A DNA stretch of 64,000 bases, taken from NCBI GenBank assembly GCA_977017645.1, contig OZ360234.1, forward strand, positions 60,884,001-60,948,000. The letters run 5' to 3'. Of the stretch, positions 3,220 to 58,857 are shown piece by piece. The stretch's first letter is position 1, and each line of letters begins with the position of its first letter. The position numbers and the translations under genes are program-made. The notes under the pieces are model-generated. The model was not told the DNA's origin. It saw nothing but the letters and a program-made list of their open reading frames with translations, and did not search any database. The DNA comes from Torpedo marmorata. Its lineage: Eukaryota.

Positions 3220-4166
3220 TGTTACAAATTCAAACCAGCAACGACAGAAGACGCAATGCAAAAGGGGTAAAATTGAAATTTATATTTATTAAAGTCAATT
3301 AAACATATAATTTCACAACAATTAACCCCATTATAAACGTCTATAAATACTATTCTTATCTAAAATGTGTGTGTGTGTTTGTGTGTGTGTGTAAAGCCCA
3401 GACCATTACAGTCTGTGCCCAACCCTCATGTAAAAATGGAAAACCTTCCCCAAAACCCGCAGGTCAGTCATAAAAACAAGTCAGTCCCAAAAATACAGTC
3501 CACAAAATTTCACTCTCTATGTTCAGGGTCCAAATTCAGCTCTGTGTGCTGGCAAGAAGGACTTCTTAATGATCGTTGGAGAGAGAGACAATGACTGTTT
3601 ATGCTTACGAATGTTTGGCCTGCTTTTCTTCTCTGTTGACTTTCCCTTCTGGTAGTTTCACAAGGATTGCGACTCCAAATCCGTTTTGGATTGAGGCGTG
3701 TACTTGGATCTCACAGCCTGTCTCGTTGATCTCTCGCCTGTTCTTCACAAAAGTTGCCTTCAACTCAGGATTTTGCTGAATCACCAAGGCCTTGTTTTTC
3801 TCCCAGCCTTTTCCCCTGGGATGCACAAGCCTGGATTTTGCTGATTCAAGAGGCTCTGTGCTCTTCTCCCATCCTTTTCCTCTGGGATGCACAAGCCTGG
3901 ATTTTGTTGGGTTCTCCCGCCTTTGCAACTCCACAACTGAACTTTTAAGGCCTTTTTAGCGGAGGTCTTCACCTGCCTTTTCAAAAGTCCAACCAAGTAT
4001 ATCTTTCCACAGTTTGTCTCCCCCTGGTGCCTCTCTCTCGGTAAGTACAACAAGTCCTGGGCAAGTTAACTCTTTCAGTACCAGGTCCCAGTGTGTACTC
4101 CAAAAGACTTCATTCATCCTTCCTGCTGACCGTCCGCAGTCGAAATGGTCGTCATGGTCCATAACA
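3220..4166 (-). mobile_element. Solo LTR of the Gmr1-like Gypsy family
   Basis: TGTTACA...ATAACA termini, 4-bp TSD GACT (3216-3219 / 4167-4170), homologous to LTRs at 15105, 16960, 24217, 27906, 38778, 43674. Confidence 0.95.
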
Positions 4167-14919: not shown

Positions 14920-16959
14920 TGGATTCCAGCATCTGCATTCTCTCCTGTGTCTCCAGCCTTTCATGCTATTTGATTGTGCCTCATGCACCTGTGCTCCTTG
15001 TGCACTTCCTACAAAAATAACTACCGGTAGATAAATACCAGAGATGGGATACCTCGCTTGTTTTCCCCTCTTTCCTAGTTGAATGTAATTACAGTTATAC
15101 CTACTGTTACAAACTAAAACCAGCAAAGACAGAAGACGCAATACAAAAGGGGTAAAATTGAAATTTATATTTATTAAAGACAATTAAACATATAATTTCT
15201 TTCCAATTAACCCCACTATAAACGTCTATAAACACTATTCTTATCTAAAGAGTGTGTGTGTGTGTAAAGCCCACACCATTACAGTCTGTGCCCAACCCTC
15301 ATGTAAAAATGGAAAACCTTCCCCAAAACCCCCAGGTCAGTCATAAAAACAAGTCAGTCCCAAAAATACAGTCCACAAAAATCACTCTCTATGTTCAGGG
15401 TCCAAATTCAGCTCTGTGTGCTGGCACGAAGGACTTCTTAATGAACGTTGGAGAGAGAGACAATAACTGTTTAAGCTTACGAATGCTTGGCCTGCATTTC
15501 TTCTTTGATGACTTTCCCTTTAAGTAGGTACACGAGGATTGCGATTCCAAATCAGTTTTGGATTGAGGCGTATACTTGGATCTCACAGCCGGTCTCATTG
15601 ATCTCACGCCTGTTCTCCACGAAAGTTGATATAAATCAGGATTTTGTTGATACAGGAGGCCATGTGCTATTCTCCCAGCCTTTTCCCCTGGGATGCACAA
15701 GCCTGGATTTGGCTGTTCCAGCCTCTTGCAACTCCAAACTAAATCTGAATGCTTTTTGCAGAGGTTTTCACCTGCTTTTGCAAAAGTGCAACAAAGTATC
15801 TTTCCACAGCCTATCTCTCTCTCGGTGTTTCTCTCTCTCTCTTTGAGTACACCCCGTCCTGGGCAAGTTAACTCTTTCAGTACCCTAACTTTGTCAGTAA
15901 ATTTTTCTCCTTCCTGCGTGTTATGCCTCTTCTCACTCTGAATACAAGCATTAGGTGTTGCATCCTTTTCTCTCTTCTTTTTCAACACTGGACAGCTTTC
16001 TAGCATATGACCAGCCTTCCTACAGTAGTGGCAAATGGGACCCGAAGGGTTTTCCCTTTTCCACTTTCCTTCATCTCTTTCCTTAACAACACTTCCAAAT
16101 TTACTTTCCACTAGCTTGGGATTATCCAAAGTGCCCTTTTGGAAAATTCTGCCTGACGTCCACTTAGGCTTGTGGGTTAAAACATATTCATCTGCTAATT
16201 TAGCTGAATTTTGCCAAGTTTTCATGTCATTAATATCCTTAATGCCTTAATATCCTCAGGTACACACCTTTTTATCTCCTCAATTAGTATCGATTCTCTC
16301 AATTGATTGTAATCATTGTTTACTGCCTTAGATGTGCACCACTGGTCAAAACACACAAGCTTTTCATAGGCAAACTCTGTGTAAGAGTGGGTTGCTGATC
16401 TTTTTAAATTTCTAAACTTCTGTGTAGCCTTTTTCACCGTTTCATTATCAGCAGCTTACTCCATGGTAAGAGAAGAATAAGCCTGCTGAGCTTTTCCTTT
16501 AGTTACACTTTGTAACATAAGAGTATTGGTCTTGTGGCCATTTTAATTTCACAGCCACCTTCTCAAAATGCTGGAAGTACTTATCTATTTCTGCCTCCTC
16601 AAATGGAGGAACCAACCTAACTTCTCTACTGGCCAAAAACCTCTCTGCAGGATGACAAATTTGATCTTGGTGCTCTTCTTGTCTCCTCTCATTTTCCAAC
16701 TTAATCTTTTCCAGCTCATATTGCCTAATTTTCTCCTCATTCTCTAATCTCTTTTGGTCCAATTCCGTGTCTAATCTCTTTTGTTCCCTGGCTACCTCCA
16801 AGTCTAATCTTTTTTGTTCCAATTCCCTGTCTAATTTCTTTTTTTTTGTATATTTTATTTTTAATTTTAAATTTTCAGACAGTAATACATACGTAAATAA
16901 TATACATTATTAATTTCAGTAAATAAAAAACATAATTATATTTGTATTACATAGTGTAA

Positions 16960-19900
16960 TGTTACAAGATTCAAACCAGCAACGACAGAAGACGCTATGC
17001 AAAAGGGGTAAAATTGAAATTTATATTTATTAAAGACAATTAAACATATAATTTCACAACAATTAACCCCACTATAAACGTCTATAAACACTATTCTTAT
17101 CGAAAAGGTGTGTGTGTGTTTGTGTGTGTGTGTGTAAAGCTCAGACCATTACAGTCTGTGCCCAACCCTCATGTAAAAATGGAAAAACGTTCCCCAAAAA
17201 CCCCAGGTCAGTCATAAAAACAAGTCAGTCAAAAAAAATAATACAGTCCACAAAAATTCACTCTCAATGTTCAGGATCCAAATTCAGCTCTGTGTGCTGG
17301 CAAGCAGGACTTCTTAATGAACGTTGGAGAGAGACAATGACTGTTTATGCTTACGAATACTTGACTTGCTTTTCTTCTCTGATGACTTTCCTTTTTGGTA
17401 GAGATTCACGAGGATTGCGACTCCAAATCAGTATACCACTGATTGAGGCGTGTACTTGGATCTCACAGCTGGTCTCGCTGATCTCACGCCTGTTCTCCAC
17501 AAAAGTTGCTTTAACTCAGGATTTTGCTGAGACAGGAGGCCATGTGCTATTCTCCCAGCCTTTTTCCCTGGGATGCACAAGCCTGGATTTTGCTGTGTTC
17601 TCTAGCCTTTGCAACGCCAAACTGCCACTGAAACTGAATGTTTTTTGCAGAGGTTTGCACCTGCTTTTGCAAAAGTGCAACAAAGTATCTTTTCCACAGC
17701 CTGTCTCTCTCTGCTCTCTCTCTCTCTCTGGGTACACCAAGTCCTGGGCAAGTTAACTCTTTCAGTACCTGGTCCCAGTGTGTACTCCAAAAGACTTCAT
17801 CCTTCCTGCTGACCGTCCACAGTCCAACTGGTCAGTCATGGTCCATAACACCTCCCACCCACAAAGAAAATTTTGGTCTGCAAGAACAAAATTTTTGAAA
17901 TTAATTGAGGTGTCACAATATAAACAAAATCTACAATGTTCATCCACAAACACAAAATATGAACTATTTTCATTTATAAAGTTTAGCATCGAGAAAGACA
18001 ATCAGCAATTACATTATCTTTCCCTTTTATATGTGTTATTACCAAATCATATTCTTGCAAAATTAGACTCCAATTCAATAACCGTCGATTCTTATTTTTC
18101 ATTTTACAAAGAAAAACCAATGGATTATGGTCAGTATACACTATGAGTGGTTTTTGAGCTGTACAGATATACACATCAACGTGTTGTAGAGCCAACACAA
18201 GAGCCAACAACTCTTTTTCTATGATTGAATAATTCCTTTGATGATCATTGAACTTCTTCGAGAAGTAGGATACCGGATGGTCAATGTCCTCTTCGTTCTT
18301 CTTCTGTAACAGCACCGCGCCCACAGCTTCATCGCTGGAAACCACGGCTAAAGAAAACGACTGTTCTAAATTAGGTGACTTAAGCACAGGTTGGTGGCAT
18401 AACATGGCTTTCAATTTGACAAATGCTTCCTGACAACCTGTCAACCATACAAATTTTTCTCTTTTTCTAAGCAAATTTGTGAGAGGGAGCGCAAGATCAG
18501 CAAAGTTTTTACAGAACTTGCGGTAGTAGCCAATCATTCCCAGGAACCTCCTCAGAGTTTTCTTACCAGTTGGAACAGGGAACTCGGAAATAGTCACAAC
18601 CTTTTCCTCTACTGGCGCCAACTTCCCCTGTCCTACTACATAACCCAGAGTATTAACAGTCCCATGACCCTCTCTGAAACAGGTTTTATCTGTCTCCTCC
18701 TTACCACTGTCGTTAACCAGCACCTCTGGTAAATGTTCAGTCCCTTTTTTCGGCACCTGTTCAAAATATGGCTTAATCATATTCACATGACAGACCTCTG
18801 TGTCTCGTCTGCGATTAGGTGTTTCTATGACATAGGTGACATCATTAATTTTTGCCTTAACTCTATAGGGTCCTGAAAATCTAGCCCGAAGAGGATTTGA
18901 ATGGATGGGAAACAGAACTAATACATTCTCACCAGGTTTAAAAGTTCTCATCTTAGCCTTTCGATCATACCAAACCTTCATTTTCTGTTGAGTGGCCTTC
19001 AAAGTCTCCTTTGCCATCTCACAAGCCCTATGCAACCGATCCTTAAATTTGGAAACATAATCGAACAGATTTAAATGCACATCACTATTAATCCACTGTT
19101 CTTTTAATAATCTTAAAGGACCTCTCACCTCATGTCCAAAAACTAACTCAAATGGACTAAAACCAAGTGATTCTTGGACAGACTCCCTCGCTGCAAATAA
19201 CAACAAATGAACCCCCTCATCCCAATCCTTTTCCTTTTCACAAAAATAGGTTCTAATCATGTTTTTCAATGTCGAATGGAACCTCTCCAAGGCCCCTTGA
19301 CTTTCTGGATGGTACACAGAGGATACAATCTGTTTAACTCCCAGTCCATCAACCATTTGTTGGAAAAACAAGATTTACCATTAGTTTTAACATTAGACGC
19401 TGAAAAGGCTTTTGATAGATTAGAATGGAATTTTTTATTTAAGGTATTGGAGAAATTAGGCTTTGGAAATACATTTATTAATTGGATTAAAACTATATAT
19501 AAAGAACCATCTGCTAAAGTAGTTACAAATGGACAAATTTCCTCAAAATTTCCTTTGACTCATTCTACTAGACAGGGATGTCATCTGTCACCAGCATTAT
19601 TTATTTTGGCGATAGAACCTTTGGCTGAATTAGTTAGAAAAGATCCTAAAATAGTTGGTATTAAAGTTGGTACAGAAGAACATAAAATTAGCTTGTTTGC
19701 AGATGATGAACTGATATATATGACAAAATCTATTACATCACTTCAACAATTATCTATTATATTAAGAGACTATGGGGAAATATCTGGATATAAAATTAAT
19801 TTTGATAAAAGTGAAATAATGGCATTATCTCAAGGTGATTATAGTAGATGTAAAGAAATTACACAATTTAAATGGGCAAAGGAGGGAATTAAATATTTGG

Positions 19901-22900
19901 GAGTAAAGGTTGATACAAAATTGGATAATTTATATAAATTAAATTATTTACCATTATTTGCAAAAATAAAGAAAGACTTAGAGAATTGGAAAGATTTACC
20001 TATAACTTTAATGGGAAGAGTAAATTGTATTAAAATGAATATTTTTCCAAGAATTCAGTATCTTTTTCAATCAATTCCTTATGGAATTCCTCAAAATTTT
20101 TTAAAGATTTAAATTTAATTACTAGGAATTTTTTTATGGAAAGGAAAGTTAGCAAGAGTAGGTATGGAAAAACTAACTTGGAATTATGAAATGGGTGGTT
20201 TACAACTTCCTAATTTTCAAAATTATTATAAAGCAGCTCAATTAAAATTTGTTAATGAATTTTTTGATTCAACTAAATCTTCTGCTTGGATTAAGATAGA
20301 ATTAAATAATATAGGAAAAGACCTCAAAGAAGAAATTATTTATAAATGGGATTCTAAATTAATATCAATAAAAAAGAAGAATTCGCCTATTTTAAAACAT
20401 TTGTTAGAAATATGGAATAAGACGGATAAGGAAATAGGAGCAAAAGGATTGATTTCTTCAAAGATGCCTTTATATCAAAATGGACTTATTCCATTTAATA
20501 TTAATAATCAATTATTTAAAATTTGGTTTCAAAAAGGAGTTAAGAAGATTAGTGATTGTTTTGAAGCTGGGAAATTTATTACGTTTCAAAGAATGAAAGA
20601 TAAATTTAATATATTGGATAATACATTTTTGGCTTATTATCAAATTAAAGCTTTTTTGACTGAGAAATTAGGTTATGCTTTGACTTTTCCAAGACAAAAT
20701 GAATTAGAATTATTAGTTACTAATGGAGATGTTAATAAATTTATTTCTCAAATGTATAAATTGTTTCAGAGGAAAATGCCTAAAGTAGGACTGCATAAAT
20801 CAAGATTAAAATGGGAATTAGATTTGAATGTAAGTATAGATGAAAATCATTGGAAAGAATTATGTAAATTAAGTATGACGAAGATTATCAACGTTAGATA
20901 TAGACTAGTTCAATATAATTTTTTTCATCAATTATATTTAACACCTAAAAAATTAAAGAAATTTAATCCGGCATTATCAGGTTTATGTTTTAGATGTAAT
21001 AAAGAGGAAGGGTCTTTTGTACATTGTACATGGTTTACCCAAAAGTTTATGAATTTTGGTTGAAAGTTAAAAAAATTTTTGATAAAGTATTTTAGATTAC
21101 ATTTCCAATGGATCCTATGATATTTTTGTTTGGAGATATTAAAAAATTTAGTATTAAGAAGAAATTAAATATGTATCAAGTAGAATTTTTGCGAATTGCT
21201 TCAGCTGTTTCAAAGAAATGCATTGCTATTACTTGGAAATCTGATTTAGATTTAGGATTAGAAAGATGGCATGCAGAACTTCGTTCGTGTATACCACTTG
21301 AAAAAATTACTTATAATTTATGTAATAAATATCATTTTTTCTTAAAAATTTGGAGCCCATATATGAAAGCTGTTGGTTTAAGGATATGAAGATCTCTGGA
21401 TATCAGATCTACTGGCACACTTGACCTCCATAATAGAATTAGTTTATAGATGGCATTCCCCTTACTCTACCTTTTTCTTTCTTTCTTTTTTCTATTTTTA
21501 CTTTTTATTTTATTTTTACTAGATTAGTGGGGGTGGGGGGGTTGGGGAGGGGAGGGAGGGAGGGGGAGAAAATGTATCACAAATAATTTGATAATTTTAT
21601 ATTCTATTTTATGTATTTTGTGATTAAAAATTTTAAATAAAATATTTAAAAAAAAAAAAAAAAAAAAAAAACCATTTGTTGGTAAACGCCTGACATGAAA
21701 TTACTGCCCTGATCTGATTGAATTTCCCTTGGCAAACCTACCAAGGTGAAAAACTTTACCATAGCCTTTACAATTGACTTTGCTTTTATGTTTCTCAGAG
21801 GAATGGCCTCTGGAAATCTGGTGGCTGCAGACATAATTGTTAACAAATACTCATTCCCCGCTTTGGTTTTGGGCAATGGGCCAACACAGTCCACAATCAC
21901 TCTCGAGAAAGGCTCACTGAAAGCAGGGATAGGTTGCAAGGGTGCCACCGGGGGACCCTGATTAGGTTTACTCACCACCTGACAAGTGTGACAGGCCCGG
22001 CAAAAGCTTACAACCTCCCTTCTCAAACTGGGCCAATAAAATTGTTTCATTATCTTCCTTATAGTTTTCTTCACCCCAAGGTGACCACCTAAGGGTGTAC
22101 TATGAGCCAAAGTTATTATTGCATCCCTATATACTTTAGGGATCACAACCTGCTGCACTACTGCCCATTCTTCATTGGCAGGAACATCACATGGTCTCCA
22201 CTTTCTCATCAACACCCCATCTTTTTCATAATAACCCACTGGCACCTTTTTAATATCTTCTTCAGAGAGAACCTTATCCCTCACCTCAGCAAGATCAGAA
22301 TCGTCCTTTTGCCTTGCTATTAGCTCCAGTTGGGATAGTGACAAGTCTGTGCCTTTAGGTGTCTTATCAGTGGATGGGTGTAACATTGGAGATTACTCAA
22401 CCTTTTCCAGGTGTTTTTGATTATCACCGACTTTTTCTTTCACCAATTTATTTTCCACTGCCTTCTCTACAGTGACATTTTTCTTAGACATGGCCCTGGT
22501 TATGGCACATGCCAGATAAATATCAGAGTCTTTCTCTGACTTATCAATGACTGGCTTAATGGTCATTCTCAATGCAGGAACTACTTTACCCTTGGCCAAG
22601 TCATTGCCTAGCAACAGTGAGACTCCTACTGGGAACTCTGATCTCACTACTATTATAACAGGTCCTTCCACCAAGTCTGAGTCCAATACTATTTTGTGCA
22701 AAGGAATGGAATCAACATCATCCCCAATTCTTTAATTAAATTTATATCACCAGTGTCAGTAGCTTCACAAAATTCCAAGACGCTATCTAACACAAGTGAC
22801 TGAGCAGCTCCAGTATCTCGCAAGATTTTCACTGGAACTTGTTTTGATCCTGCCTTAACTGAAACAAAACCATCAGTCACAAAAGGTTTAAATACATCTC

Positions 22901-25102
22901 TAACTTTGTCAGTAAATTTATCTCCTTCCTGCGTGTTATGACTCTTCTCACTGAATACAAGCATTAGGTGTTGCATCCTTTTCTCTCTTCTTTTTCAACA
23001 CTGAACAACTTGCTCGCATATGACCAGCCTTCCTACATTAGTGGCAAATGGGACCCGAAGTGTTTTCCCTTTTCCACTTTCCTTCATCCATTTCCATAAC
23101 ACCACTTCCAAATTTACTTTCCACTTGCTTGGGATTATCCACAGTGACCTTTTGGAAAATTCTACCTAACGTCCACTTAGGCTTGTGGGTTAAAGCATAT
23201 TCATCTGCTAACTTAGCTGAATTTTGCCAAGTTTTCACGTCCTTTTCATCTAAGTATGCCTTAATATCCTCAGGAACACACCTTTTTAATCTCCTCGATT
23301 ATTATCAATTCTCTCAATTGATTGTAATCATTGTTTACTGCCTTATATGCGCACCACCGGTCAAAACACATAACCTTTTCATAGGCAAACTCTGTGTAAG
23401 ATTGGGTTGCTGCTCTTTTTAAATTTCTAAACTTCTGTCTATAAGCCTCTGGAACTAACTCATAACCCTGGAGTATAGCCTTTTTCACCGTTTCATAATC
23501 AGCAGCTTGCTCTGTGGTAAGAGTAGTATAAGCTTGCTGAGCTTTTCCTTTAATTACACTTTGTAACATAAGAGACCATTGGTCTTGTGGCCATTTTAAT
23601 TTCACAGCCACCTTCTCAAAATGTTGGAAGTACTTATCTATTTCTGCCTCCTCAAATGGAGGAACCAACCTAACTTCTCTACTAGCCAAAAACCCCACAG
23701 CAGGATGACGAATTTGATCTTGGTGCTCTTCTTGTCTCCTCTCATTTTCCACCCTCATCTTTTCCAGCTCATATCTCCTATTTTTCTCATTGTTCTCATA
23801 TCTCTTTTCTTCCAATTCCAATTCTAATTTCTTTTGTTCCCTGGTTGCCTCCAATTCTAATTTCTTTAGTTCCAACTGTATGTTTTCAGAAGGTTTACCC
23901 TTGGGAAACTGCTCTAACACGCTCTCCTCAAACTTTTTTTCTTTTATATAGTATTTGACAATTTTTCTCCCAATCTCTGCCTTTTTTCATAAATGGTTTT
24001 ACCGAAGCAATGCCCGACTCTGTTGCTGTAGCCACTAACTGTTCCTTTTTCACCTTTTTTAAAGTATCAGGTTCACGTGATTCCAAAAATGTTCCTACAT
24101 CCATTGTTGCTGGTTTTTCATTACACACACACTAAAACCATGTCTAAAACCAGAATGGGATTCCTTCAATTACCAAGATGGATTTTTAATTTAAATCCAA
24201 GGACGAGCCCCAATTTTGTTACAAGATTCAAACCAGCAACGACAGAAGACGTAATGCAAAAGGGGTAAAATTGAAATTTATATTTATTAAAGACAATTAA
24301 ACATATAATTTCACAACAATTAACCCCACTATAAACGTCTATAAACACTATTCTTATCTAAAAGGTGTGTGTGTGTGTGTGTGTGTGTAAAGCCCAGACC
24401 ATTACAGTCTGTGCCCAACACTCATGTAAAAATGGAAAAACTTTCCCCAAAAATCCCAGGTCAGTCATAAAAACAAGTCATTCAAAAAAATAATACAGTC
24501 CACAAAATTTCACTCTCTATGTTCAGAATCCAAATTCAGCTCTGTGTGCTGGCAAGCAGGACTTCTTAATGAACGCTGGAGAGAGACAATTACTGTTTAT
24601 GCTTACGAATACTTGACTTGCTTTTCTTCTTTGATGACTTTCCTTTTTGGTAGAGATTCACGAGGATTGCGACTCCAAATCAGTATACCACTGATTGAGG
24701 CGTGTACTTGGATCTCACAGCTGGTCTCGCTGATCTCACGCCTGTTCTCCACAAAAGTTGCTTTAACTCAGGATTTTGCTGAGACAGGAGGCCATGTGCT
24801 ATTCTCCCAGCCTTTTTCCCTGGGATGCACAAGCCTGGATTTTGCTGTGTTCTCTAGCCTTTGCAACTCCAAACTGCCACTGAATCTGAATGCTTTTTGC
24901 AGAGGTTTGCACCTGCTTTTGCAAAAGTGCAACAAACTATCTTTTCCACAGCCTGTCCCTCTCTGGTCTCTCTCTCTCTCTGGGTACACCAAGTCCTGGG
25001 CAAGTTAACTCTTTCAGTACCTGGTCCCAGTGTGTACTCCAAAAGACTTCATCCTTCCTGCTGACCGTCTGCAGTCCAAATGGTCAGTCATGGTCCATAA
25101 CA
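16960..25102 (-). mobile_element. Inner Gmr1-like LTR retrotransposon (Gag-PR-IN-[RT deleted]-RNaseH), frameshifted
   Basis: LTRs 16960-17850 and 24217-25102; TSD GTAA/GTAT; PBS next to 24217; PPT next to 17850; Gag LVPPF...LVPEAYRQKFR, protease LRDTGA, integrase HHCC/DDE, RNase H ELLAL-YTDH-ADCLSR. Confidence 0.95.
19364..21669 (+). mobile_element. 5'-truncated L1-clade LINE inserted into the integrase of the inner LTR element
   Basis: RT and C-terminal ORF pieces 19364-20112, 20164-21063, 21108-21389; AATAAA and long poly(A) 21648-21669; TSD AACCATTTGTTGG (19351-19363 / 21670-21682); same family as 56945-62889. Confidence 0.95.
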
Positions 25103-28100
25103 GTATCTAACCCTTCCCTGAACCCCCCCAACCCCTTATATCTTCCAAACACTTCAAGTTAAAATTATTGCTTAATATTTAATGTTTCTGTCCCACTCTC
25201 CACCCTTTCCCTCCCTTTAAATTCCCTTCCCTTACTAAAAACTAAAAAAAGAAAAGAAAAGAAGGTAGTGTAGTATTACTTATTAAAACATCTGTACGAT
25301 CGCTGCTGGGTCCACAGTTCGATGCATGGTATTCAACAGTATTTTTATTATTTAAATTTGAGAGAGTTAACAGGGTCTATAACGTAGAGCAACACATTTA
25401 AATATTCATACCTAATGATTGGATATATGGTCGCCAAATTTGCAAGAAGACCCCATATTTATTTCTCATATTATATGTTATTTTTTCCAATGGAATACAA
25501 CTCCACATCTCTGTATTCCATCTATCCATACCTAAATTTGTATCTGATTTCCAAGTTACTGCTATATACTTCCTTGCTACTGCTAAAGCAATTTTTATAA
25601 ATTTCAATTGATATGTTGATAACTTCAACTTTGGTCTAGTTCCTTCCACATTCCCTCATAAAAATAAATCAGGGTTTTGTGGAAATGTGACACCTGTAAT
25701 TTGTTTTAACAAATTCCCTCACTCCATCCAATTTTTTTTTACCTTAGAGCATAACCATGTTGAATTAAAAAAGTTCCCTCTTCTTCACCACATCTAAAAC
25801 AGTTGTTTGATAATGTAGATTTTATCTTATTCCATTTTTGTGGTGTAAGATATAATTGATGTAAAAAATTATACTGTACTAATCTATATCTTACATTAAT
25901 AGTGTTGGGCATGCTATCTTGACATAAATCCGACCATCTTTTTTCATCAATTATAACATTAAGATCTTGTTCCCATCTCTGTTGAGATTTATGAAGTCCT
26001 TGTTTTAAGGTTCCCCTTTGTAACAAGGAATATATTATAGAAGTAAATTTTTTAATATTTCCTTTCCTAATAAGAGTTTCCACTTCACTACAATTTTGTA
26101 ACAACATATCCGGACCTAATTTTTCCCTTAAATATCCTCTTAATTGAAAATAACAAAAAAGAGTATTATTCAGTATTCCATATTTGTTTCTTAGCTGTGT
26201 AAATGACATAAATTGCTTTCCTTCATAACAATCTTCTATCTTCTTTATTCCTTTCTGTGACCATATATTTAAAAATTGATTACCTTTTGTAAAGGGTATG
26301 AGATTATTCTGTATCAATGACGTTTTAGGTGATATAGTTCCTTTCATCCCTATCTCATCATTAATCTTGTTCCATGCAGTAATCAAATGTTTTAATAATG
26401 GTGTTTCTTTAACTCCTATCAATAATTTTGAGTTCCATTTATATATAAATTCTTCTGGTACTTTCTCTCCTATTTCTCCTAACTCTATTCCGACCCATGC
26501 AGGTCTTTCTTCACTTTCAAAAAAGGAAGTAACAAATCTCATTTGTGCCGCTTGATAATAATTTTTAAAATTAGGGAGGTTTAAACTTCCCAATTCATAT
26601 TTCCATGTTAAACATTCCATAGAGACTCTTGACATTTACCTTTCCAAAGAAATTTTCTCACTTGTTTATTTAAATCCTGGAAAAAACCTGTGGTAGTAAA
26701 ATAGGTATAGTTTGATACAAATATTGTATCCTTGGAAATATATTCATTTTAATACAGTTAACTCTTCCTATCAAAGTAATAGGTAAATTAATCCATTTTT
26801 CCAAATCTTCTTTAATCTTTTTAAGTAATGGTAGATAATTCCATTTATATAAATTTTTAAAATTATTGTCTGTTCGAATCCCAAGGTATTTTATCCCATT
26901 ATGCGGCCATTTAAACTGAGTATTTCTTTTACATGTAGTATAATCTCCCTCTGTAAGAGGCATAATTTCACTTTTATCCCAATTTATCTTATAACCTGAA
27001 ACTTTCCCATATTCTTCCAATTTAAAATGCAATCTTTGCAAAGAGGTCTCAGGCTCTGTCAAATATATTAAAACATCATCCGCAAATAAGCTGATTTTAT
27101 GTTGTTCTTGACCAACTCTAAATCCCTTAATTACTGAGTCACTTCTAATTGCCTCTGAAAGTGGTTCTATAGCTAATATAAATAAAGCTGGTGACAATGG
27201 GCACCCTTGTCGACAAGATCTTGTCAAACAAAACAAAGTTGATGTTTGTCCATTAGTCACTACTTTAGCTTTTGGAGTGTTATATAATGCTTTAATCCAA
27301 TTTATATAAGTCTGTCCAAATCCAAATTTCTCCAATACTTTAAACAAAAAATCCCATTCCAATCTATCAAAAGCTTTTTCTGCATCTAATGCCAGCGCAA
27401 CACTTATTACTTTTCTTTTTTGAGCTAAATGAACAATACTAAGTAACCTTGCTACATTGTCAGCTGCTTGTCTTTTTTTTATAATATCTGTTTGATCCAT
27501 ATGTCTAATTTCTTTTGTTCCAATTCCAATTTCTTTAGTTCCAACTGTATGTTTTCAGAAGGCTTACCCTTGGGAAACTGCTCTAACACGCTCTCCTCAA
27601 ACTTTTTCCCTTTTATATAGTATTTGGCAATTTTTATCCCAATCTCTGCCTTTTTCATTGATGGTTTTACAGAAGCAATGCCCAACTCTGTTGCTATCGC
27701 CACTAACTGTTCATTTTTAGCCTTTTTTAAAGTATCGGGTTCAGGTAATTCCAAAATATTTTCTACATCCATTGTTGCTGTTTTTTTTGTTACACACACA
27801 CTAGCTATTAATTAGCTTTATAAAAAGGAATGTCTTAAACCAGACTGGGATTCCTTCAATTACCAAGATGGATCTTGATTCAAATCCTCGGATGATCCCC
27901 CAATTTGTTACAAATTCAAACCAGCAACGACAGAAGACGCAATGCAAAAGGGGTAAAATTGAAATTACTATTTATTAAAGACAATTAAACATATAATTTC
28001 TTTCCAATTAACCCCACTATAAACGTCTATAAACACTATTCTTATCTAAAGAGTGAGTGTGTGTGTGTGCGTGTGTGTGTAAAGCCCAGACCATTACAGT

Positions 28101-28647
28101 CTGTGCCCAACCCTCCTGTAAAAATGGAAAACCTTCCCCAAAACCCCCAGGTCAGTCATAAAAATAAGTCAGTCCCAAAAATACAGTCCACAAAAATCAC
28201 TCTCTATGTTCAGGGTCAAAATTCAGCTCTGTGTGCTGGCAAGAAGGACTTCTTAATGAACGTTGGAGAGAGAGAGACAATAACTGTTTAAGCTTACGAA
28301 TGCTTGGCCTGCTTTTCTTCTCTGATGACTTTCCCTTTTAGTCGGTACACGAGGATTGCGATTCCAAATCAGTTTTGGATTGAGGCGTATACTTGGATCT
28401 CACAGCCGGTCTCATTGATCTCACGCCTGTTCCCCACGAAAGTTGATTTAAATCAGGATTTTGCTGATACAGGAGGCCATGTGCTATTCTCCCAGCCTTT
28501 TCCCCTGGGATGCACAAGCCTGGATTTGGCTGTGTTCTCCAGCCTTGCAACTCCAAACTATTGAATCTGAATGCTTTTTGCAGAGGTTTGCACCTGCTTT
28601 TGCAAAAGTGCATCAAAGTATCTTTCCACAGCCTGTCTCTCTCTCTC

Positions 28648-28683
<36 letters not shown>

Positions 28684-29354
28684 CACCCCGTCCTGGGCAA
28701 ATTAACTCTTTCAGTACCTGGTCCCAGTATGTACTCCAAAAGACTTCATCCTTCCTGCTGACCGTCCACAGTCCAAATGGTCAGTCATGGTCCATAACAC
28801 TACCTTATCATGATTAACTCGGCAGAGAACATAGTGAGAATATATAAAGTTCCTGTACCTCATTGCTGCCCAAAACAGAGCAATCTGCTAACAATGTCAA
28901 TATTTTATTTCCTAATTATCAGTTAGCTGGCAGGGGTTGGTCCCATACAGAGTAAGTGGTGATTTCTGAGAACTTGTGCATAAAAGTGATGATGGTGATG
29001 TATCAATTTGTAACTTTATATATTCGGGCGAGGGTTGACGTTTCCCTTGAAAGAGCAGCAAAAAAGACCAAAAAATCTTTGTTAGTATTAGATGCTGTCG
29101 GAACAGTATCCTTAGGAAGTTGTCCTGGGAACATTGGGAGGGCACTACTTATTCATGCAGAATCCAGATTCCTGGACCGTATTTTGGGATAGGTATTCAG
29201 GAGAGCTTTTCACTTTCACTTGCTAAATGTGGTCTTAATACTGGACCCCTTTTTAAATTCATTTAGTAAATCTGAAACCTCTATCACTTACTCAAAATGA
29301 CCTTGAATTAAGGATAAATGATAATCTCCAATAACTTTAATATTTTATTTTCAG

Positions 29355-30111
29355 GCTGAAACCAAATAATACTGCAGATGATGATCCTCACTCAAACAGT
29401 TTCAACAACCCAGCCTATTTTGTACTTGAAGGACTTCCCTACTCCCAATCTGGGACAAGCTGTCAGGAAAATCCAGGGAATCCGGTGTTGAAACCTATCC
29501 CCAGGAACAAGGCACACCCTCTTCCTCCAACACCAATGGAGAAGCCAAAGGATTACCCTCTCCGACACCTAAACAATGAAGGTGTTTCCTCCGAGCATGA
29601 AGGCCTTTTAGATCAAAACCAACAAATGTTCCACAAACAAATGGAAGTTGAAATGCAGAACAACCCACTCTATGCCAGTTCTGAAGATGTTTGGGGTAAG
29701 CCAGCCCAGGCTTCACAGACCAAAGTTGGCCAAGAGTGGCTCAAGAGTCCAGCACCAGCTAGGGACCCCGTTGAGTTCAAAGCTCGCACCATGGCACCGA
29801 GAATCAGGCCCCAGCTGTCGGCCATGAGTGGGCCCCAAGCTTGCCTGATCAATGAGGTCAGAGACAAGATCAGCGAAAGGAGGTCAGAGGAGCTATTTGT
29901 TAGCCACATGGCAAAATTGTTGAGTGATAAGGACCGTCAGTCCAACAGAGGTGAGCTACCCGTTCCTGTTCGCGAGCGTCCTGTCAAAAGTCCTCGGCTG
30001 CCGGCGAGGAACAAAGCACCAGAGGTACAGCCTCGACCTGCACGGGCTGATTGTGGACACCTGAATGTGCCTCCACCACTGCCAGTCAAGAGCAGGACAA
30101 TGGAACTTGGG
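29355..30111 (+). CDS. INPPL1: SHIP2/INPPL1-like large exon: proline-rich tail with NPAY and NPLY motifs
   Basis: TTTTCAG acceptor, GTAAGT donor at 30112; 757 nt open; RLKP...NSFNNPAYFVLEGLP matches SHIP2 RLKP...NSFNNPAYYVLEGVP. Confidence 0.93.
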
Positions 30112-31412
30112 GTAAGTCATGGAAAAAAAAGATGAATTAATCGTTTTAGATACAGAGTTTTACCCACTGAACAACCACATTTGTGTTTCAACCAAACCTA
30201 ATTTATATCATAAATGCAAATGAAAATCCATCTCCCCAAATACCTTGTGGATAAATGTATTGCCAAAGATAGGACTGAGATGCATAAGCTTTGGTCAGTC
30301 CCTAATTTGAGATGAGTTGAATATCATGGTTAGATTTGTAAATCCTGGGAAAGGTTGTCAAACTACTGGATTAATCCATAGGCCTGGAAAAAGGGCTCAG
30401 AGACTTTACGATGGCAGATAGGGAATTTAAATTTAAATTTAATTAAATAAATCTTGAATAAACTCAAGCTAGAGTCAGCAATAGTGACCACTGAACTCCT
30501 AAATTGTTGTAAGAACTAATATACCTTGGCCGTCTAACCCATATAATAGTTGACTTCCCAGGTGCCCTCTCATGTAGTTGAGCAACCCAATGATAAGGAG
30601 CAATGATAGAAACAAATTCTGACCTTTACAACAATGCTTACATCCTGCAAATGAATGAACAAATATGTCCGCAATTAAAATGGAGCAAATGAACTCAATG
30701 TGTGCGTTTACGCATCTGGTAAATTGTTTTGAATCTTTCTCAACTTTTGCAATCTTTACGTGTTTGAATATATTTGTTTAGGTTAATTTTTAAGATGAGT
30801 CATTATTTTTATCATTCCCTTTATCAAAATGGAACTGGAATACTGAGGCAGTGCTGCACTGTCAGCTTTTGCATGCCAATTTTGAGATAAGACATTAAAC
30901 TGTGGTACCCCTTGCCCTCGGGTTGATGCAGAAGATCCCTTGACTTTACTTTGAAAAAAAATAGAGACCTCTTGATATGCAACACTGTTCCCATCCCTTA
31001 ACTAGCCTCATTAGATTATTTGGCCTTTCCTGCATTACTGTTTGTTGGACCTTTCTCTGCACAATCTAGCAATTGTGGTTTCTACACTACCAACAATGAC
31101 CATGATTCGGTCATTCTCTTGGCTGTAAATCGCGGAGATGTTCCTAGGTGGAAAAAGTCCGTCTATAAATGCAAGTCTTTCTCAATATACATCAGTAAGG
31201 TTGCTCCCTGAAGTATCTTCATCAGCCAGTGACCAAGGTTATTTGAACGTGTGAAATATGACCTGAGAGTGCATTAGAGAGCCTCAGCGTTACTGTCCTC
31301 AGCATAAACCAAAAAGAGTCACTAACATTTGTATGCAAAAAAGGTTACATTTAAGAAATGAATGTCCTTCTTCATCCAAAAAATGATAAATGTGTTTTCC
31401 TGTCTCTTTTAG

Positions 31413-38165: not shown

Positions 38166-39504
38166 CTTTCCTTAGATGGAATTTGTGAACTTGGTCATTA
38201 TTATTTTCAAGATAAGAGAAGGTAACAATAAATAAATATCTCGGAAGGACGTGAAGAGGTAGGAAATAATCTTAGATAGTGCAAGAACTTGAGATAATAT
38301 AGGTCTGAAAAAGGAGGCGACAAATTCGGCATGTGCAAAATTATCACAGTGAATGCAGAAATCAGAATTGCTTTGTATGCTAGCCCATGTCAAGTGATTT
38401 GAAATCAAACCATGTCGTGCAATTTGAAGCAAGGTACATCCAATTATTTCTGACATTCCACTTCAAAAGTACTTTATTTTGAGACAGTTTAAAACAGACA
38501 TAGGGAGCAAAATATTAATGTAAGGCTTTTTCTTTTTGTCGATTTAATTTGAGACATTACAATAAATAACCCCAAAGAATTAGTAACATTTTACCCTTCC
38601 TTAAAAATATTTCATTTCTGAAGCAAAATGTGTTCCTCAATTAACTAAACTGCGACATTATGAAATAAATCTGAATTTTTTTAGGACTGTATTATCTTGG
38701 ATCTCATCACACTCAAGCACACATCAGATAATGAAAATCATGTCATTTTTAATGAAAATGTAATAATTCTTGCCTATTGTTACAAATTCAAACCAGCAAC
38801 GACAGAAGACGCAATGCAAAAGGGGTAAAATTGAAATTATTATTTATTAAACACAAGTAAACATATAATTTCACAACAATTAACCCCACTATAAACGTCT
38901 ATAAACTCTATTCTTATCTAAAAGGTGTGTGTGTGTGTATGTGTGTGTAAAAAGCCCAGACCATTACAGTCTGTGCCCAACCCTTATGTAAAAATGGAAA
39001 AACTTTCCCTAAAAACCCCAGGTCAGTCATAAAAACAAGTCAGTCAAAAAAAGAGAATAATACAGTCCACAAAATCCACTCTCTAAGTTCAGGCTTCAAA
39101 TTCAGCTGTGTCTGGTAGAAATACTTCTGAATGAACGTTGGAGAGAGACAATGACTGTTTATGCTTACAAATACTTGTTTTCTTCTCTGATGACGTCCCC
39201 TTCTTGGGTGTTCATAAGGATTGTCTGTTCAGATCAGTATACCACTGATTTAGGCGTATGCTTGAATCTCACAGCTAGTCTCGCTGATCTCACGCCTGTT
39301 CTCCACAGAAGTTGCTTTTTCTCAGAATTTCTCTGAGACAGGAGGCCATGTGCTATTTTGCCAGATTTTCTCTGACTATGCACAAACCTGGATTTGGCTG
39401 TGTTCTGTAGCCTTTGCAACTCACAACTGTGTGCTTTGCAGAGATCTGCCCCTGCTTTTTGCAAAAGTGCAACAATGTATCTTTTCCACAGTCTGTCTCT
39501 CTCT

Positions 39505-39537
<33 letters not shown>

Positions 39538-39656
39538 GTACACCAAGTCCTGGGGAAGTTACCTTTTTCAGTAATTGGCCCCAGTGTGTAATCCAAAAGA
39601 CTTCATCCTTCCTGCTGACCGTCCGCAGTCCAAATGGTCAGTCATGGTCCATAACA

Positions 39657-39668
39657 CCTCCCACCCAC
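39657..39668 (-). promoter_or_regulatory. Polypurine tract
   Basis: GTGGGTGGGAGG abutting the 3' LTR; identical at 17851-17862. Confidence 0.75.
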
Positions 39669-39789
39669 AAAGGAAATTTTGGTCTGCAAGAACAAAATTT
39701 AGGAAAGTAATTGAGGTGTCAGAATATAAACAAAATCTACAATGTTCATCCACAAATACAAAATATGAACTATTTTCATTGATAAAGTT

Positions 39790-42700
39790 TAACATCCAGA
39801 AAGACAATCAGCAATTACATTATCTTTCCCTTTTATATGAGTGATTACCAAATTATATTCTTGTAAAATTAGACTCCAATTCAACAACCGTCAATTCTTA
39901 TTTTTCATTTTACAAAGAAAAACCAATGGATTATGGTCAGTATACACTATGAGTGGTTTTTGAGCTGTACAGATATACACATCAAAGTGTTGTAGAGCCA
40001 ACACAAGAGCTAACAACTCTTTCTCTATAGTTGAATAATTCCTTTGATGATCATTGAACTTCTTCGAGAAGTAGGATACCGGATGTTCAATGTCCTCTTC
40101 GTTCTTCTTCTGTAACAGCACTGCACCCACAGCTTCATCGCTGGCATCCACGGCTAAAGAAAACGACTGTTCTAAATTAGGTGACTTAAGCACAGGTTGG
40201 TGGCATAACATGGCTTTCAATTTGACAAATGCTTCCTGACAACCTGTTGACCATACAAATTTTTCTTTCTTTCTAAGCAAATTTGTGAGAGGGAGCGCAA
40301 GATCAGCAAAGTTTTTACAGAACTTGCGGTAGTAGCCAATCATTCCCAGGAACCTCCTCAGAGTTTTCTTACCAGTTGGAACAGGGAACTCGGAAATAGC
40401 CACAACCTTTGCCTCTACTGGCGCCAACCTCCCCTGTCCTACTACATAACTCAGAGAATTAACAGTTCCATGACCCTCTCTGAAACTGGTTTTATCTGTC
40501 TCCTCCTTACCCCTGTCAATAACCAGTACCTCTGGTACATTTTCAGTCCCTTTGTGTGGCACCTGTTCAAAATACGGCTTAATCATATTCACATGACAGA
40601 CCTGTGTGTCTCGTCTGCGATTAGGTGTTTCTATGACATAGGTGACATCATTAAATTTTGACTTAGCTCTATAGGGTCCTGAAAATCTAGCCCTAAGAGG
40701 ATTTGAATGGATGGGAAACAGAACTAGTACGTTCTCACCAGGTTTAAAAGTTCTCATCTTTGCCTTTCGATCATACCAAACCTTCATTCTCTGTTGAGTG
40801 GCCTTTAAATTCTCCTATGTAACCGATCCTTAAATTTGGAAACATAATCGAACAGATTTAAATGCACATCACGATTAATCCACTGTTCTTTTAATAATCT
40901 TAAAGGACCTCTCACCTCATGTCCGAAAACTAACTCAAATGGACTAAAACCAAGTGAGTCTTGGACAGACTCCCTCGCTGCAAATAACAACAAATGAACC
41001 CCTTCATCCCAATCCTTTTCCTTCTCACAACAATAGGTTCTAATCATGGTTTTCAAAGTCGAATGGAACCTCTACAAGGCCCCTTGACTTTCTGGATGGT
41101 ACGCAGAGGATACAATCTGTTTAACTCCTAGTCCACCAACCACTTGTTGGAAAACGCCTGACATGAAATTACTGCCCTGATCTGATTGAATTTCCCTTGG
41201 CAAACCTACCAAGGTGAAAAACTTTACCATAGCCTTTACAATGGACTTTGCTTTTATGTTTCTCAGAGGAATGGCCTCTGGAAATCTGGTGGCTGCACAC
41301 ATAATTGTTAACAAATATTCATTCCCTGCTTTGGTTTTGGGCAATGGGCCAACACAGTCCACAATGACTCTCGAGAAAGGCTCACTGAAAGCAGGGATAG
41401 GTTGCAAGGGTGCCACCGGGGGACCCTGATTAGGTTTACCCACCACCTGACAAGTGTGACAGGCCCGGCAAAAGCTTACAACCTCCCTTCTCAAATTGGG
41501 CCAATAAAATTGTTTCGTTATCTTCCGTATAGTTTTCTTCACACCAAGATGACCACCTAAGGGTGTACTATGAGCCAAAGTTATTATTTCATCCCTATAT
41601 ACTTTAGGGATTACAACCTGCTGCACTACTGCCCATTCTTCATTGGCAGGAACATCACGTGGTCTCCACTTTCTCATCAACACCCCATCTTTTTCATAAT
41701 ACCCAACTGGCACCTTTTTAATCTCCTCTTCAGGGAGAACCTTATCCCTCACCTCAGCAAGATCAGGATCGTCCTTTTGCCTTGCTATTAACTCCTGTCG
41801 GGATAGTGACAAATCTGTGCCTTTAGGTGTCTTATCAGTGGATGGGTGTAACATAGGAGATTGCTCAACCTTTTCCAGGTTTTCTTGATTGTCAGTTTCT
41901 TTTTTTTTTACCAAGTTATTTTCCACTGCCTTCTCTACAGTGACATTTTTCTTAGACATGGCCCTGGTTATGGCACATGCCGAATAAATATCAGAGTCTT
42001 TCTCTGACTTATCAATGACTGGCTTAGTGGTCATTCGCACTGCAGGAACTACTTTACCCTTGGCCAAGTCATTGCCTAACAACAGTGAGACTCCTTCTAC
42101 TGGCAACTCTGATCTCACTCCTATTATAACTGGTCCTTCCACCAAGTCTGAGTGCAATACTATTTTGTGCAAAGGAATGGACTCTACCTCACCACCAATT
42201 CCTTTAATTAAATTTATGTCACCGGTGTCAGTAGCTTCACAAAATTCCAAGACACTATCTAACACAAGTGACTGAGCAGCTCCAGTATCTCGCAAGATTT
42301 TCACTGGAACTTGTTTTGATCCTGCCTTAACTGAAACAAAACCATCAGTCACAAAAGGTTTAAATACATCTTTAACTTTGTCAGTAAATTTATCTCCTTC
42401 CTGGGTGTTATACATCTTCTCACTCTGAATACAAGCATTAGGTGTTGCATCCTTTTCTCTCTTCTTTTTCAACACTGGACAGCTTGCTATCATATGACCA
42501 GCCTTCCTACAGTAGTGGCAAATGGGACCCGAATTGTTCTCCCTTTTCCACTTTCCTTCATCCCTTTCCTTAACACCACTTCCAAATTTACTTTCCACTT
42601 GCTTCTGATTATCCACCGTGTCCTTTTGGAAAATTCTACCTGACGTCCACTTAGGCTTGTGGGTTAAAGCATATTCATCTGCTAACTTAGCTGACTTTTG

Positions 42701-43567
42701 CTAAGTTTTCACCTCCTTTTCATCTAAGTATGCGTTAATATCCTCAGGAACACACCTTTTTATCTCCTCGATTATTATCAAATCTCTCAATTGATTGTAA
42801 TCATTGTTTACTTCCTTAGATGTGCACCACCTGTCAAAACACACAACTTTTTCATAGGCAAACTCTGTATAAGATTGGGTTGCTGATCTTTTTAAATTTC
42901 TAAACTTCTGTCTATAAGCCTCTTGAACTAACTCATAAGCCTGGAGTATAGCCTTTTTCACCGTTTCATAATCAGCAGCTTGCTCCATGGTAAGAGTACA
43001 ATAAGCTTGCTGAGCTTTTCCTTTAATTACACTTTGTAACATAAGAGACCATTGGTCTTGTGGCCATTTTAATTTCACAGCCACTTTCTCAAAATGTTGG
43101 AAGTACTTATCTATTTCTGCCTCCTCAAATGGAGGAACTAACCTAACTTCTCTACTAGCCAAAAACCCCTCAGCAGGATGACGAATTTGATTTGGGTGCT
43201 CTTCTTGTCTCCTCTCATTTTCCAACCTCATCTTTTCCAACTCATATCTCCTATTTCTCTCATCGTTCTCTAAGTCTAATCTCTTTTGTTCCAATTCCAA
43301 TTTCTTTAGTTCCAACTGTATGTTTTCAGAAGGTTTACCCTTGGAAAACTGCTCTAACACACTCTCCTCAAATTTTTTTTCTTTTATATAGTATTTGACA
43401 ATTTTTCTCCCAATCTCTGACTTTTTCATAGATGCTTTTACCGAAGCAATGCGCAACTCTGTTGCTATAGCCACTAACTGTTGCTTTTTCGCCTTTTTTA
43501 AAATATCAGGTTCAGGTGATTCCAAAAAATGTTCTACATCCATTGTTGCTGGTTTTTCGTTACACAC
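39790..43567 (-). pseudogene. gag-pol polyprotein remnant: Gag (coiled coil, SCAN-like capsid, CCHC), protease, integrase, RT C-terminal remnant/connection, RNase H
   Basis: ORFs 42701-43567, 41072-42616, 40805-41056, 39891-40787 separated by point stops or a small indel; LRDTGA, HSTPLGGH/CRAC HTC, VDCVGP-SDQGSNF-QGAL(E), AVDASD-ELLAL-YTDH. Confidence 0.92.
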
Positions 43568-43652
43568 ACATAGCTTTTAATTAGCTTTACAAAAGGAATG
43601 CCTTAAACCAAACTGGGATTCCTTCAATTACCAAGATGGATTTTGATTCAAA

Positions 43653-43670
43653 TCCTAGGACGAGCCCCCA
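43653..43670 (-). promoter_or_regulatory. tRNA-Pro primer-binding site
   Basis: TGGGGGCTCGTCC(TAGGA) 3 nt after the 5' LTR; matches the tRNA-Pro PBS TGGGGGCTCGTCCGGGAT; variants next to 24217 and 27906. Confidence 0.85.
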
Positions 43671-45467
43671 ATTTGTTACAAATTCAAACCAGCAATGACA
43701 GAAGACGCAATGCAAAAGGGGTAAAATTGAAATTTATATTTATTAAAGACAATTAAACATATAATTTCACAACAATTAACCCCACTATAAACGTCTATAA
43801 ACTCTATTCTTATCTAAAATGTGTGTGTGTAAAGCCCAGACCATTACAGTCTGTGCCCAATCCTTATGTAAAAATGGAAAAACTTTCCCTAAAAACCCCA
43901 GGTCAGTCATAAAAACAAGTCAGTCAAAAAAAGAGAATAATACAGTCCACAAAATCCACTCTCTAAGTTCAGGCTTCAAATTCAGCTGTGTCTGGTAGAA
44001 GTACTTCTGAATGAACGTTGGAGAGAGACAATGACTGTTTATGCTTACAAATACTTGTTTTCTTCTCTGATGTCGTCCCCTTCTTGGGTGTTCATAAGGA
44101 TTGTCTGTTCAGATCAGTATACCACTGATTTAGGCGTATGCTTGAATCTCACAGCTAGTCTCGCTGATCTCACGCCTGTTCTCCACAGAAGTTGCTTTTT
44201 CTCAGAATTTCTCTGAGACAGGAGGCCATGTGCTATTTTGCCAGATTTTCTCTGACTATGCACAAACCTGGATTTGGCTGTGTTCTGTAGCCTTTGCAAC
44301 TCACAACTGTGTGCTTTGCAGAGATCTGCCCCTGCTTTTTGCAAAAGTGCAACAATGTATCTTTTCTACAGTCTGTCTCTCTCTGCTCTCTCTCTCTCTC
44401 TCTCTCTCTGGGTACACCAAGTCCTGGGGAAGTTAACTTTTTCAGTACCTGGCCCCAGTGTGTACTCCAAAAGACTTCATCCTTCCTGCTGACCGTCCGC
44501 AGTCCAAATGGTCAGTCATGGTCCATAACACTATATTCTTACTTATTATCTTCCAAAATAAGAAGAGAGTTTAGGACTTCTTTTGGAAACTACTTTCACC
44601 AACTTGGTGAAATTAAACTCCAAAAAAAGTTCTAAACTCTCAGCTCATTTTGGAAAATAATAAGAACACAAGGAACAGGAGCAAGAGGATGCCATTTGGC
44701 CCATCATTCCTGCTCTGTATTTAATAAGGTCATGGCTGATCTGGCAATGGATTCAGCTCCACCTACATGCCTTTTCCCCTCAACTCTTAATTCCCCAACT
44801 GTGCAGAAATCCATCCAACTGTTCCTTCAAAATGTACGTGGGATATAGATTAATTGAGTGTAATTGGGCGTAAAATAAGTGGTAATTCTGCCTGGCCCAC
44901 AGGAAAAAGAATCTTAGGGTTGTATGTCATGTATGTACTATGACAATAAACCTGAACTGAACTTTTGAACATATGTCGGTCAGGGCCAGATCCCCACTTG
45001 GTACATGGAGTCCAGCATGGGGAAATGTTTCTGTCTATAACTGAACATGAAATGTGTCCTCCTGATATTCAAAATTTGCCATATATTCATCCCAGGTTAA
45101 GTATTTCAAATCAATAAAACTGCAACAAAATCTGCAGAAGATTATGTGCCTCTCAGCATCTCAAGGAACAGTAAAGATAGGCAATCAATGGTGTATTATC
45201 AATATTACTCAACTCAAAACATGTTACTGATGTTTGGTAATGTTTCATACAGGAAATAGTAGTATTGGGCCACAAGAGGGCACCATGGTGCTAAATAGAA
45301 TCTGGGATCAGTGAGATTTTGTATCAATCTCACAGAAGAATTGGATAAGGCCAAAAGATTTATTAAATTCAACCAGACCCAGTGACATAGTGCTGAAACT
45401 TCTCAATTTCATTACTTGGCTTTGAATGTAGCATTATTGGAAAATCTTTACAAGAAATGCACAATCT

Positions 45468-58565: not shown

Positions 58566-58857
58566 AGAATTGACATTAATTTGTTATGTAAATTCTGTTG
58601 GGGGGGGTGGACTTTTTGTCTTCTCCGTACCTAACCACATACCACTTTAGTGGCGAGGGCCACTTCCCGAACAGAAGAGGGGGGGTAATACTGGTGTAAA
58701 TTACCAGTAATTTTATATTGGGTTTTTCTTTTTAGTTTTTTATTATCTTCTTTTTTTTTTCTGTCTTTATCTTTGTTTAAGGAGATGTCAAGTTTATTAC
58801 AAATGTGGAAAGGGGTACCGGCTGGCCTGATGAGGAGAAAATTATTAAATATTAGTA

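Follow-up and report, generated by a model that had tools for sequence, protein, structure and literature searches.

A deletion allele without the polymerase core predominates in a Gmr1-like retrotransposon family of Torpedo marmorata and probably recombines with its reverse transcriptase-bearing siblings

The 64,000-nt stretch of Torpedo marmorata DNA analysed here (contig OZ360234.1, positions 60,884,001 to 60,948,000; hereafter the window) contains, at 38778..44530 on the reverse strand, a long terminal repeat (LTR) retrotransposon, copy A, whose polyprotein runs from integrase (IN) into RNase H without the core of reverse transcriptase (RT). The question raised by this locus is whether such elements form a distinct RT-less lineage, as a first-pass annotation of the window had proposed, or are one form of a family that still holds RT. 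Our analysis favours the second answer, and we consider it highly probable that the deleted form (ΔRT) is a freeloading allele that is packaged, copied and recombined with RT-bearing (RT+) siblings of a Gmr1-like family.

The open reading frame (ORF) at 39894-40814 of copy A reads HVNMIKPY...EETDKTSFREGHGTVNSLSYVVGQG...LRRFLGMIGYYRKF, and the frame that follows IN passes the linker and enters the end of RT and RNase H without fingers or palm, as had been noticed before. Pfam did not find RVT_1 in the seven ORFs scanned, residues 917-1196 of a sawfish relative (P0001) were unmatched in copy A, and the stretch after the junction aligned to residues 256-434 of the Ty3 RT structure 4OL8, its best solved-structure match (E 1e-29). 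The earlier naming of this stretch holds for the RT end and RNase H, while its 'connection' is in fact the last palm strand and thumb of RT (40167..40464, reverse strand), followed by RNase H; according to PMC5371799 a connection subdomain is absent from Ty3-type RT. Compared with RT+ copies of the same family, the deletion removes exactly 771 nt in frame, comprising the linker end and the RT fingers and palm. Its junction lies in an 8-nt near-repeat (40465..40472, reverse strand), and the breakpoint near-repeats are CATGGGAC (CATGGRAC) on the left and CATGC[T/G]AC on the right in RT+ copies. Amino-acid changes in the first codons after the junction were limited to ΔRT copies.

Matched 29-mers, identical in their first 24 letters, occurred in the genome 15,840 times for the deleted form and 5,721 times for the RT-bearing form (73% deleted), with no match to the reversed-pattern control of either; these counts are exact-match lower bounds in a 6.2-Gb assembly that may include both haplotypes. 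An inner RT 29-mer had 6,021 matches, and among 40 position-ordered copies 32 were deleted and eight had RT. The deletion is thus no peculiarity of two copies in a family that mostly carries RT. A partner containing RT, with the same LTRs, primer-binding site (PBS) and polypurine tract (PPT), was found within the family itself, about 27% of which consists of such copies. A pattern in which the element's own left flank is followed by other sequence had 30 matches, and of the 20 fetched, three contained a complete RT, with 91-93% identity to copy A on either side of it (IN and RNase H); the corresponding right-side pattern returned 15 one-base slips and no RT. An initial junction pattern (14,617 matches) was dropped as junction-specific because the near-repeat lets RT+ copies match it too. 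Sister families found with the sawfish RT were rejected as the needed partner (72-77% identity, other LTRs). These sisters (L031-L080) are older RT-bearing Gmr1-like families with unrelated LTRs, which have the tRNA-Pro PBS start and the PPT end of the copy A family; their RT end had 2,788 matches. Separately, junction matches about 4.7-5.7 kb apart had the appearance of tandem arrays in which ΔRT copies share LTRs (G000:C31:190184093-190194383; C61:42032367-42046644; C1:12279516-12290170).

The insertion sites bear out the proposal that the RT-less form had spread as such. Both LTRs were called in 32 of 52 ΔRT copies, and a perfect 4-bp target-site duplication (TSD) flanked 30 of these 32, with 25 different sequences; both LTRs were called in nine of 27 RT+ copies, six of them with a perfect TSD. 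The median LTR divergence was 0.020 in ΔRT and RT+ copies alike (p 0.95). The RT-less form has multiplied as such through independent insertions, and the earlier suggestion that polymerase is needed in trans is supported as well.

Linkage with RT status was calculated for 53 ΔRT and 67 RT+ copies. The mean r2 was 0.30 at sites up to 60 nt from the junction, but in four bins farther away, out to 1,300 nt, it was 0.007, 0.008, 0.011 and 0.009; the same pattern was observed across the whole internal region with 80 copies. Among common alleles more than 60 nt from the junction, 121/125 were shared by two or more ΔRT and two or more RT+ copies, the rare-allele load was equal (p 0.57), and the first principal component tracked copy age (rho 0.82), with ΔRT and RT+ copies interleaved along it. 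On trees of gag-protease (PR), IN and thumb-RNase H, RT status changed 14, 17 and 17 times, respectively, against shuffled means of 16.4, 20.6 and 19.7 (P 0.11, 0.04 and 0.10) and the single change expected of one clade, and RT-less copies were not monophyletic along the element. Because RT status is linked only within about 60 nt, ΔRT is not a separate lineage; on this linkage evidence it is an allele of one family, and the distinct lineage first envisaged falls away. An independent RT-less family, with a history apart and polymerase borrowed from another family, would account for one junction at very high copy number and for the derived marks near it, and RT-bearing sister families with the same PBS do exist (72-77% identity, other LTRs). 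Nevertheless, the family has its own RT+ copies with the same LTRs, whose IN and RNase H are 91-93% identical to those of copy A, alleles beyond 60 nt are in linkage equilibrium and the segment trees show 14-17 label changes instead of one, so that the trees and the linkage refute a separate family unless the sample is unrepresentative; we regard it as exceedingly improbable. The alignment excluded L226, which has no anchor, and copy B; gag-repeat codon columns were skipped, and 30,834 of 329,775 aligned bases were masked as low identity.

To the right of the junction the sequence changes step by step with age: the oldest ΔRT copies still have the bases of RT+ copies, and young copies have gained another two or three changes. 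At 8 nt to the right, 49/52 ΔRT copies and 0/64 RT+ copies carry a derived base, suggesting one main origin of the deletion, and more nested marks lie on both sides. These observations bear on the possibility that the near-repeat yields the same 771-nt loss repeatedly, either while the element is copied or once it has inserted, with no inherited ΔRT allele. The near-repeat at the breakpoints, a genuine small-deletion hotspot elsewhere in the element and the absence of the commonest junction mark from 3/52 ΔRT copies would agree with such recurrence, but fresh losses would carry RT+ flanks, and the derived base, together with the nested marks that flank the junction, rules recurrence out as the main source; as such it is very unlikely, although a minority of copies may stem from independent events. 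One RT-bearing copy, L214, carried ΔRT-type marks right of RT, as if RT had been regained by a crossover at the near-repeat; copies of this type numbered 1/64 in one RT+ set and 0/64 in the position-ordered set.

Across 35 elements with TSDs, paired LTRs agreed at 2,274 of 2,341 polymorphic calls (97.1%), as compared with 58.5% between elements, and all four gametes were found in 612/2,485 site pairs. Since the paired LTRs agree while the haplotypes are mosaic, the mosaics arose before integration, and the LTR-pair test rules out gene conversion after insertion as their source. The mosaics fit copy-choice recombination between co-packaged RNAs, likely in shared particles; this inference of copy choice before integration follows the reasoning in PMC10924933 and PMC5668417.

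The 771-nt skip was also detected in public-run contigs of organisms B, C and F, alongside contigs inside RT, when four runs were compared with an RT+ copy. Because the same skip is found in these organisms, the ΔRT allele is likely to be older than their species splits. Contig depth in these runs is no measure of copy number, and since ancestral insertions are shared the three organisms are not independent replicates.

Selection on the coding frame was evaluated with singletons as the neutral yardstick and with variants in at least 6/53 deleted copies as shared. Before masking, relative omega in the deleted copies was 0.24 for capsid, 0.12 for PR, 0.22 for IN and 0.10 for RNase H, while the thumb gave 0.59 (not significant) and the linker 1.65; after masking, the overall value was 0.35 for the deleted copies and 0.26 for those with RT. 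In ΔRT copies after masking, no non-CpG stop reached five copies, as compared with 81 synonymous variants (singletons, 99 vs 379; p 5e-8). Without the CpG filter, two stop alleles were present in at least six copies, and the one shown is an Arg codon in both forms. The catalytic residues of RNase H were kept in 51/51, 45/48, 49/49 and 48/48 ΔRT copies. In RT+ copies the RT core was under purifying selection (shared N/S 4/11 vs 178/46 in singletons, p 4e-5), with the catalytic D kept in 62/62, 57/61 and 60/61. These data indicate that one open frame is maintained in the replicating pool, where purifying selection acts on Gag, PR, IN and RNase H. Because both forms share alleles, the purifying signal is not assignable to the deleted copies, and the intact RNase H of ΔRT copies could be explained equally well by exchange with RT+ copies. 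Alleles once taken as private to ΔRT (IN 1N/4S, RNase H 1N/3S) were later found in a larger RT+ sample with 40 more copies, and amino-acid and synonymous alleles did not differ in enrichment between forms (p 0.17). Within 60 nt of the junction, the zone in which ΔRT evolves by itself, there were 10 amino-acid changes and one synonymous change; the leftover polymerase end beside the junction evolves without constraint, with events too few to judge frame keeping.

A frameshift caused by a 7-nt loss in RNase H was shared by eight copies. It was read as recurrent damage because it lies in a multi-deletion hotspot and its frequency grows with copy age. The hotspot (40074..40086, reverse strand) is intact in copy A; among sibling copies, 15 of 71 covering it had lost 7, 11, 15, 17, 20 or 35 nt there (against a mean cover of 0.37 per column). 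The carriers (sibling loci L116-L255) include both forms and are older (p 0.001), exact matches to the 7-nt form number 1,073 in the genome, and one copy has a poly-T insertion beside the site. The cause may be breaks that recur and are mended through microhomology, or else slippage by RT; a general CpG-centred deletion process was rejected, as 15 of 32 CpG-touching deletions were at a single site.

The conserved frame could also be read as cooperation, in which ΔRT copies act as helpers that supply Gag, PR, IN and a functional thumb-RNase H module and tune the Gag:polymerase ratio, with selection holding both forms. In its strongest form this would be a heritable division of labour: the polymerase-less three quarters would be a second genome segment supplying capsid, integrase and a stand-alone thumb-RNase H subunit, the minority would supply polymerase, and frequency-dependent selection would keep the ratio stable from species to species. 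The deletion is in frame and stops just before the thumb, the absence of common stop alleles and the retained RNase H residues described above agree with this reading, and both forms persist through the history of the family and in three other organisms; moreover, in the asymmetric Ty3 RT dimer it is the subunit with an occluded polymerase site that provides RNase H activity (PMC5371799). All of these points would be expected from recombination with RT+ copies, however, the alleles that had seemed private turned up in RT+ copies, and the only zone of solo ΔRT evolution has the 10:1 excess of amino-acid changes, while the distribution of amino-acid and synonymous alleles speaks neither for nor against. 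We therefore hold the cooperative system to be unlikely, and give the division of labour an equally small chance.

Under the preferred reading, that of a freeloading allele within one recombining family, the deletion would have arisen in one event, probably a template jump during reverse transcription, and the junction would then have gained its own changes stepwise. The linkage pattern suggests that through many cycles RNAs of the two forms were enclosed in common particles; the sibling polymerase would copy the ΔRT RNA, which would be packaged with RT+ RNA or protein. Copy-choice recombination would keep everything beyond about 60 nt in one gene pool and, because it would be constant, the LTRs, gag, PR, IN and RNase H would stay matched to the helper; RNase H would be refreshed regardless of any use that the deleted copy makes of it. 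In a one-frame polyprotein the polymerase is made in excess, and few molecules per particle are enough, so that it would be the most easily shared product. An RNA that is 12% shorter and still translates Gag would gain in cis, with its share capped once RT+ copies are rare. The replication advantage of ΔRT is a proposal, and the ΔRT polyprotein itself, like any activity of its RNase H, is putative.

Several points weigh against this reading. The ΔRT share rose from 14/40 in the oldest to 22/40 in the youngest tertile, a descriptive trend in an enriched sample. The reading does not account for the failure of shorter forms, also without RNase H, to take over, and the anchors could not sample such forms. 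Sampling, by exact 29-mers, was confined to the window and the first 45 Mb of a single contig, the run of organism E, with thin cover, was without the 771-nt joint, and co-packaging is deduced from linkage alone.

The family was compared with known kinds of elements. Gmr1-like Ty3/Gypsy elements have a SCAN-type capsid and the order PR-IN-RT-RNase H and are abundant in fish (bioRxiv 10.1101/2025.03.03.638093). The grouping with Gmr1 made earlier agrees with what we found: this domain order, a SCAN capsid and, in RT+ siblings, RT between IN and RNase H, together with LTRs, a tRNA PBS, a PPT and a short TSD. The Ty3 RT structure match (E 1e-29), rather than an RT tree, assigns RT and RNase H to the Ty3/Gypsy type. 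The family differs from other Gmr1-like elements in that about 73% of the detected copies are without the polymerase core. It has the features of a deletion subtype, namely a shared deletion multiplied by insertion, an autonomous partner of the same age with the same cis signals, and linkage at the boundary only, and what had been presented as an undescribed system comes down to a deletion allele that is probably complemented in trans.

Such alleles have precedents. Mouse IAP I-delta-1 has a shared internal deletion with an open fused frame, is non-autonomous and trans-complemented yet makes most new insertions, and its fusion protein is reported to act in cis (PMC6466679); unlike the present allele, which lacks the polymerase core only and is otherwise intact, it is retrovirus-derived and has lost 1.9 kb across gag and pol. 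In the cattle ERVK[2-1-LTR] family the D-type is the majority (85%) and recombines with the C-type, with linkage at segment boundaries and co-packaging deduced from four gametes (PMC10924933). The likeness lies in the defective majority, the recombination with a competent form and the boundary-only linkage; the cattle D-type differs in having no functional genes, a replaced centre and about 400 loci. Simulations for the cattle family predict quick displacement and family collapse (PMC10924933), whereas here both forms coexist in more than 20,000 copies and in several organisms. Members of the Arabidopsis ONSEN family recombine pairwise during transposition, resulting in mosaic insertions (PMC5668417), but ONSEN is a Copia family with induced bursts, and its abstract mentions no dominant polymerase-deletion allele. 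Plant TR-GAG and sugar-beet families are mobile without full pol, and some pol domain is retained in 15 of the beet families (PMC13570524, whose domain-content tables may hold similar plant cases); their domains are described as partly decayed and the families as separate, in contrast to the frame kept intact in one gene pool with the helper that we describe. Our survey of the open literature, a scope that leaves aside Repbase, Dfam, subscription journals and supplements, revealed neither a record of the family nor one of any Gmr1-like family with an allele deleted for RT only, and no protein among 88 matches to the junction region carried this junction. A sea-cucumber Gmr1-like gene model (P0087) is missing most of RT in frame with other breakpoints, and may be an artefact or an independent case.

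With one null allele, more than 20,000 datable copies and both forms present over time and in several species, the family is an unusually extensive and clear natural archive in which cheating and sex can be followed within a retrotransposon. It poses a question of shared goods, as polymerase has been dropped by three quarters of the copies while no stop allele spreads. It also bears on how often co-packaged genomes recombine and on whether defective forms must destroy their family, as the cattle simulations predict (PMC10924933). RT-based surveys and trees would miss most copies of the family, and in a pool at linkage equilibrium both copy trees and subfamily labels mislead.

The remaining features of copy A, all on the reverse strand, are those of a full-length element. 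It is flanked by the TSD CTAT (38774-38777 and 44531-44534), and its 5' LTR (43674..44530, TGTTA...TAACA) and 3' LTR (38778..39656) are 95.9% identical with gaps included, 843 of 857 aligned bases being identical by blastn. The PBS (43649..43670), complementary to the 3' end of host tRNA-Pro, and the polypurine-rich tract ahead of the 3' LTR (39657..39672) are both kept, as had been stated. The reverse complement of the PBS form of sibling copies matched ARAGORN tRNA-Pro genes at 4/12 loci; in loci L116-L255 about 11 nt of the PBS are constant and the inner variants CCGGGA, CCTAGGA, TGCGGGA, CGCGGGA and CCTTGG are shared and have not reverted to the tRNA sequence. The polyprotein (39789..43543) is one frame, Gag-PR-IN-(ΔRT)-thumb-RNase H, which in copy A is disrupted by three stops (42701, 41072 and 39891) and by the loss of 19 nt near 40826; copy A itself is a dead element. 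Pfam searches of the seven ORFs yielded SCAN, zinc knuckle, Integrase_H2C2, rve, Integrase_p58_C and RT_RNaseH. The SCAN-type capsid C-terminal domain in Gag (42707..42925; PF02023) scored above the cut-off (E 9e-9), and the CCHC zinc knuckle of the nucleocapsid, CHYCRKAGHMIASC (42473..42520), was assigned from a weak Pfam match below the cut-off together with its sequence. The aspartic protease region (42040..42373, limits approximate), with a DTG motif near 42281-42289, had no Pfam match and was located from the sequence and by alignment to relatives. Integrase (40572..41611) comprises an H2C2 finger, the core and an SH3-like C-terminal domain (PF17921, PF00665 and PF22938), and the Ty3-type RNase H (39789..40166; PF17917) has its D-E-D-D residues. 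The best named protein matches to copy A were from a sawfish and rays, the closest being from Pristis pectinata (77% in thumb-RNase H), which makes a cartilaginous fish the likely host.

Other copies of the family lie in the same window. Copy B (16960..25102, reverse strand) is a second ΔRT copy with the same in-frame junction (near 18659-18666), as had been seen earlier, and a LINE interrupts its integrase at about 19368-21670. Its TSD (GTAA/GTAT, one mismatch) does differ from that of copy A, as claimed, while the LTR 'subtype' ascribed to it does not stand, the subtypes of copies A and B being best read as mosaic haplotypes of one recombining pool. Copy C (15105..28799, reverse strand; TSD CTAC) has lost all of the element from PR up to where the 3' LTR begins, and with it the PPT. 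The region 15105-28799 is nested on three levels, in that copy C contains copy B and a LINE, and copy B contains another LINE inside its integrase. A solo LTR of the family, its strand unassigned, is present at 3220..4166 (TSD GACT).

A likely host exon at 29341-30135 on the forward strand encodes two NPxY-like motifs and proline-rich stretches, and all three LTR elements are on the opposite strand. It may resemble an inositol-phosphatase or adaptor tail, a likeness for which a protein atlas search of this ORF gave no support and nothing usable. Finally, a near-intact LINE at 57072-62523 on the forward strand, presumably L1/Tx1-like, has an ORF1 of 497 aa and an ORF2 frame of 1,224 aa, and several broken relatives of it are found in the window.

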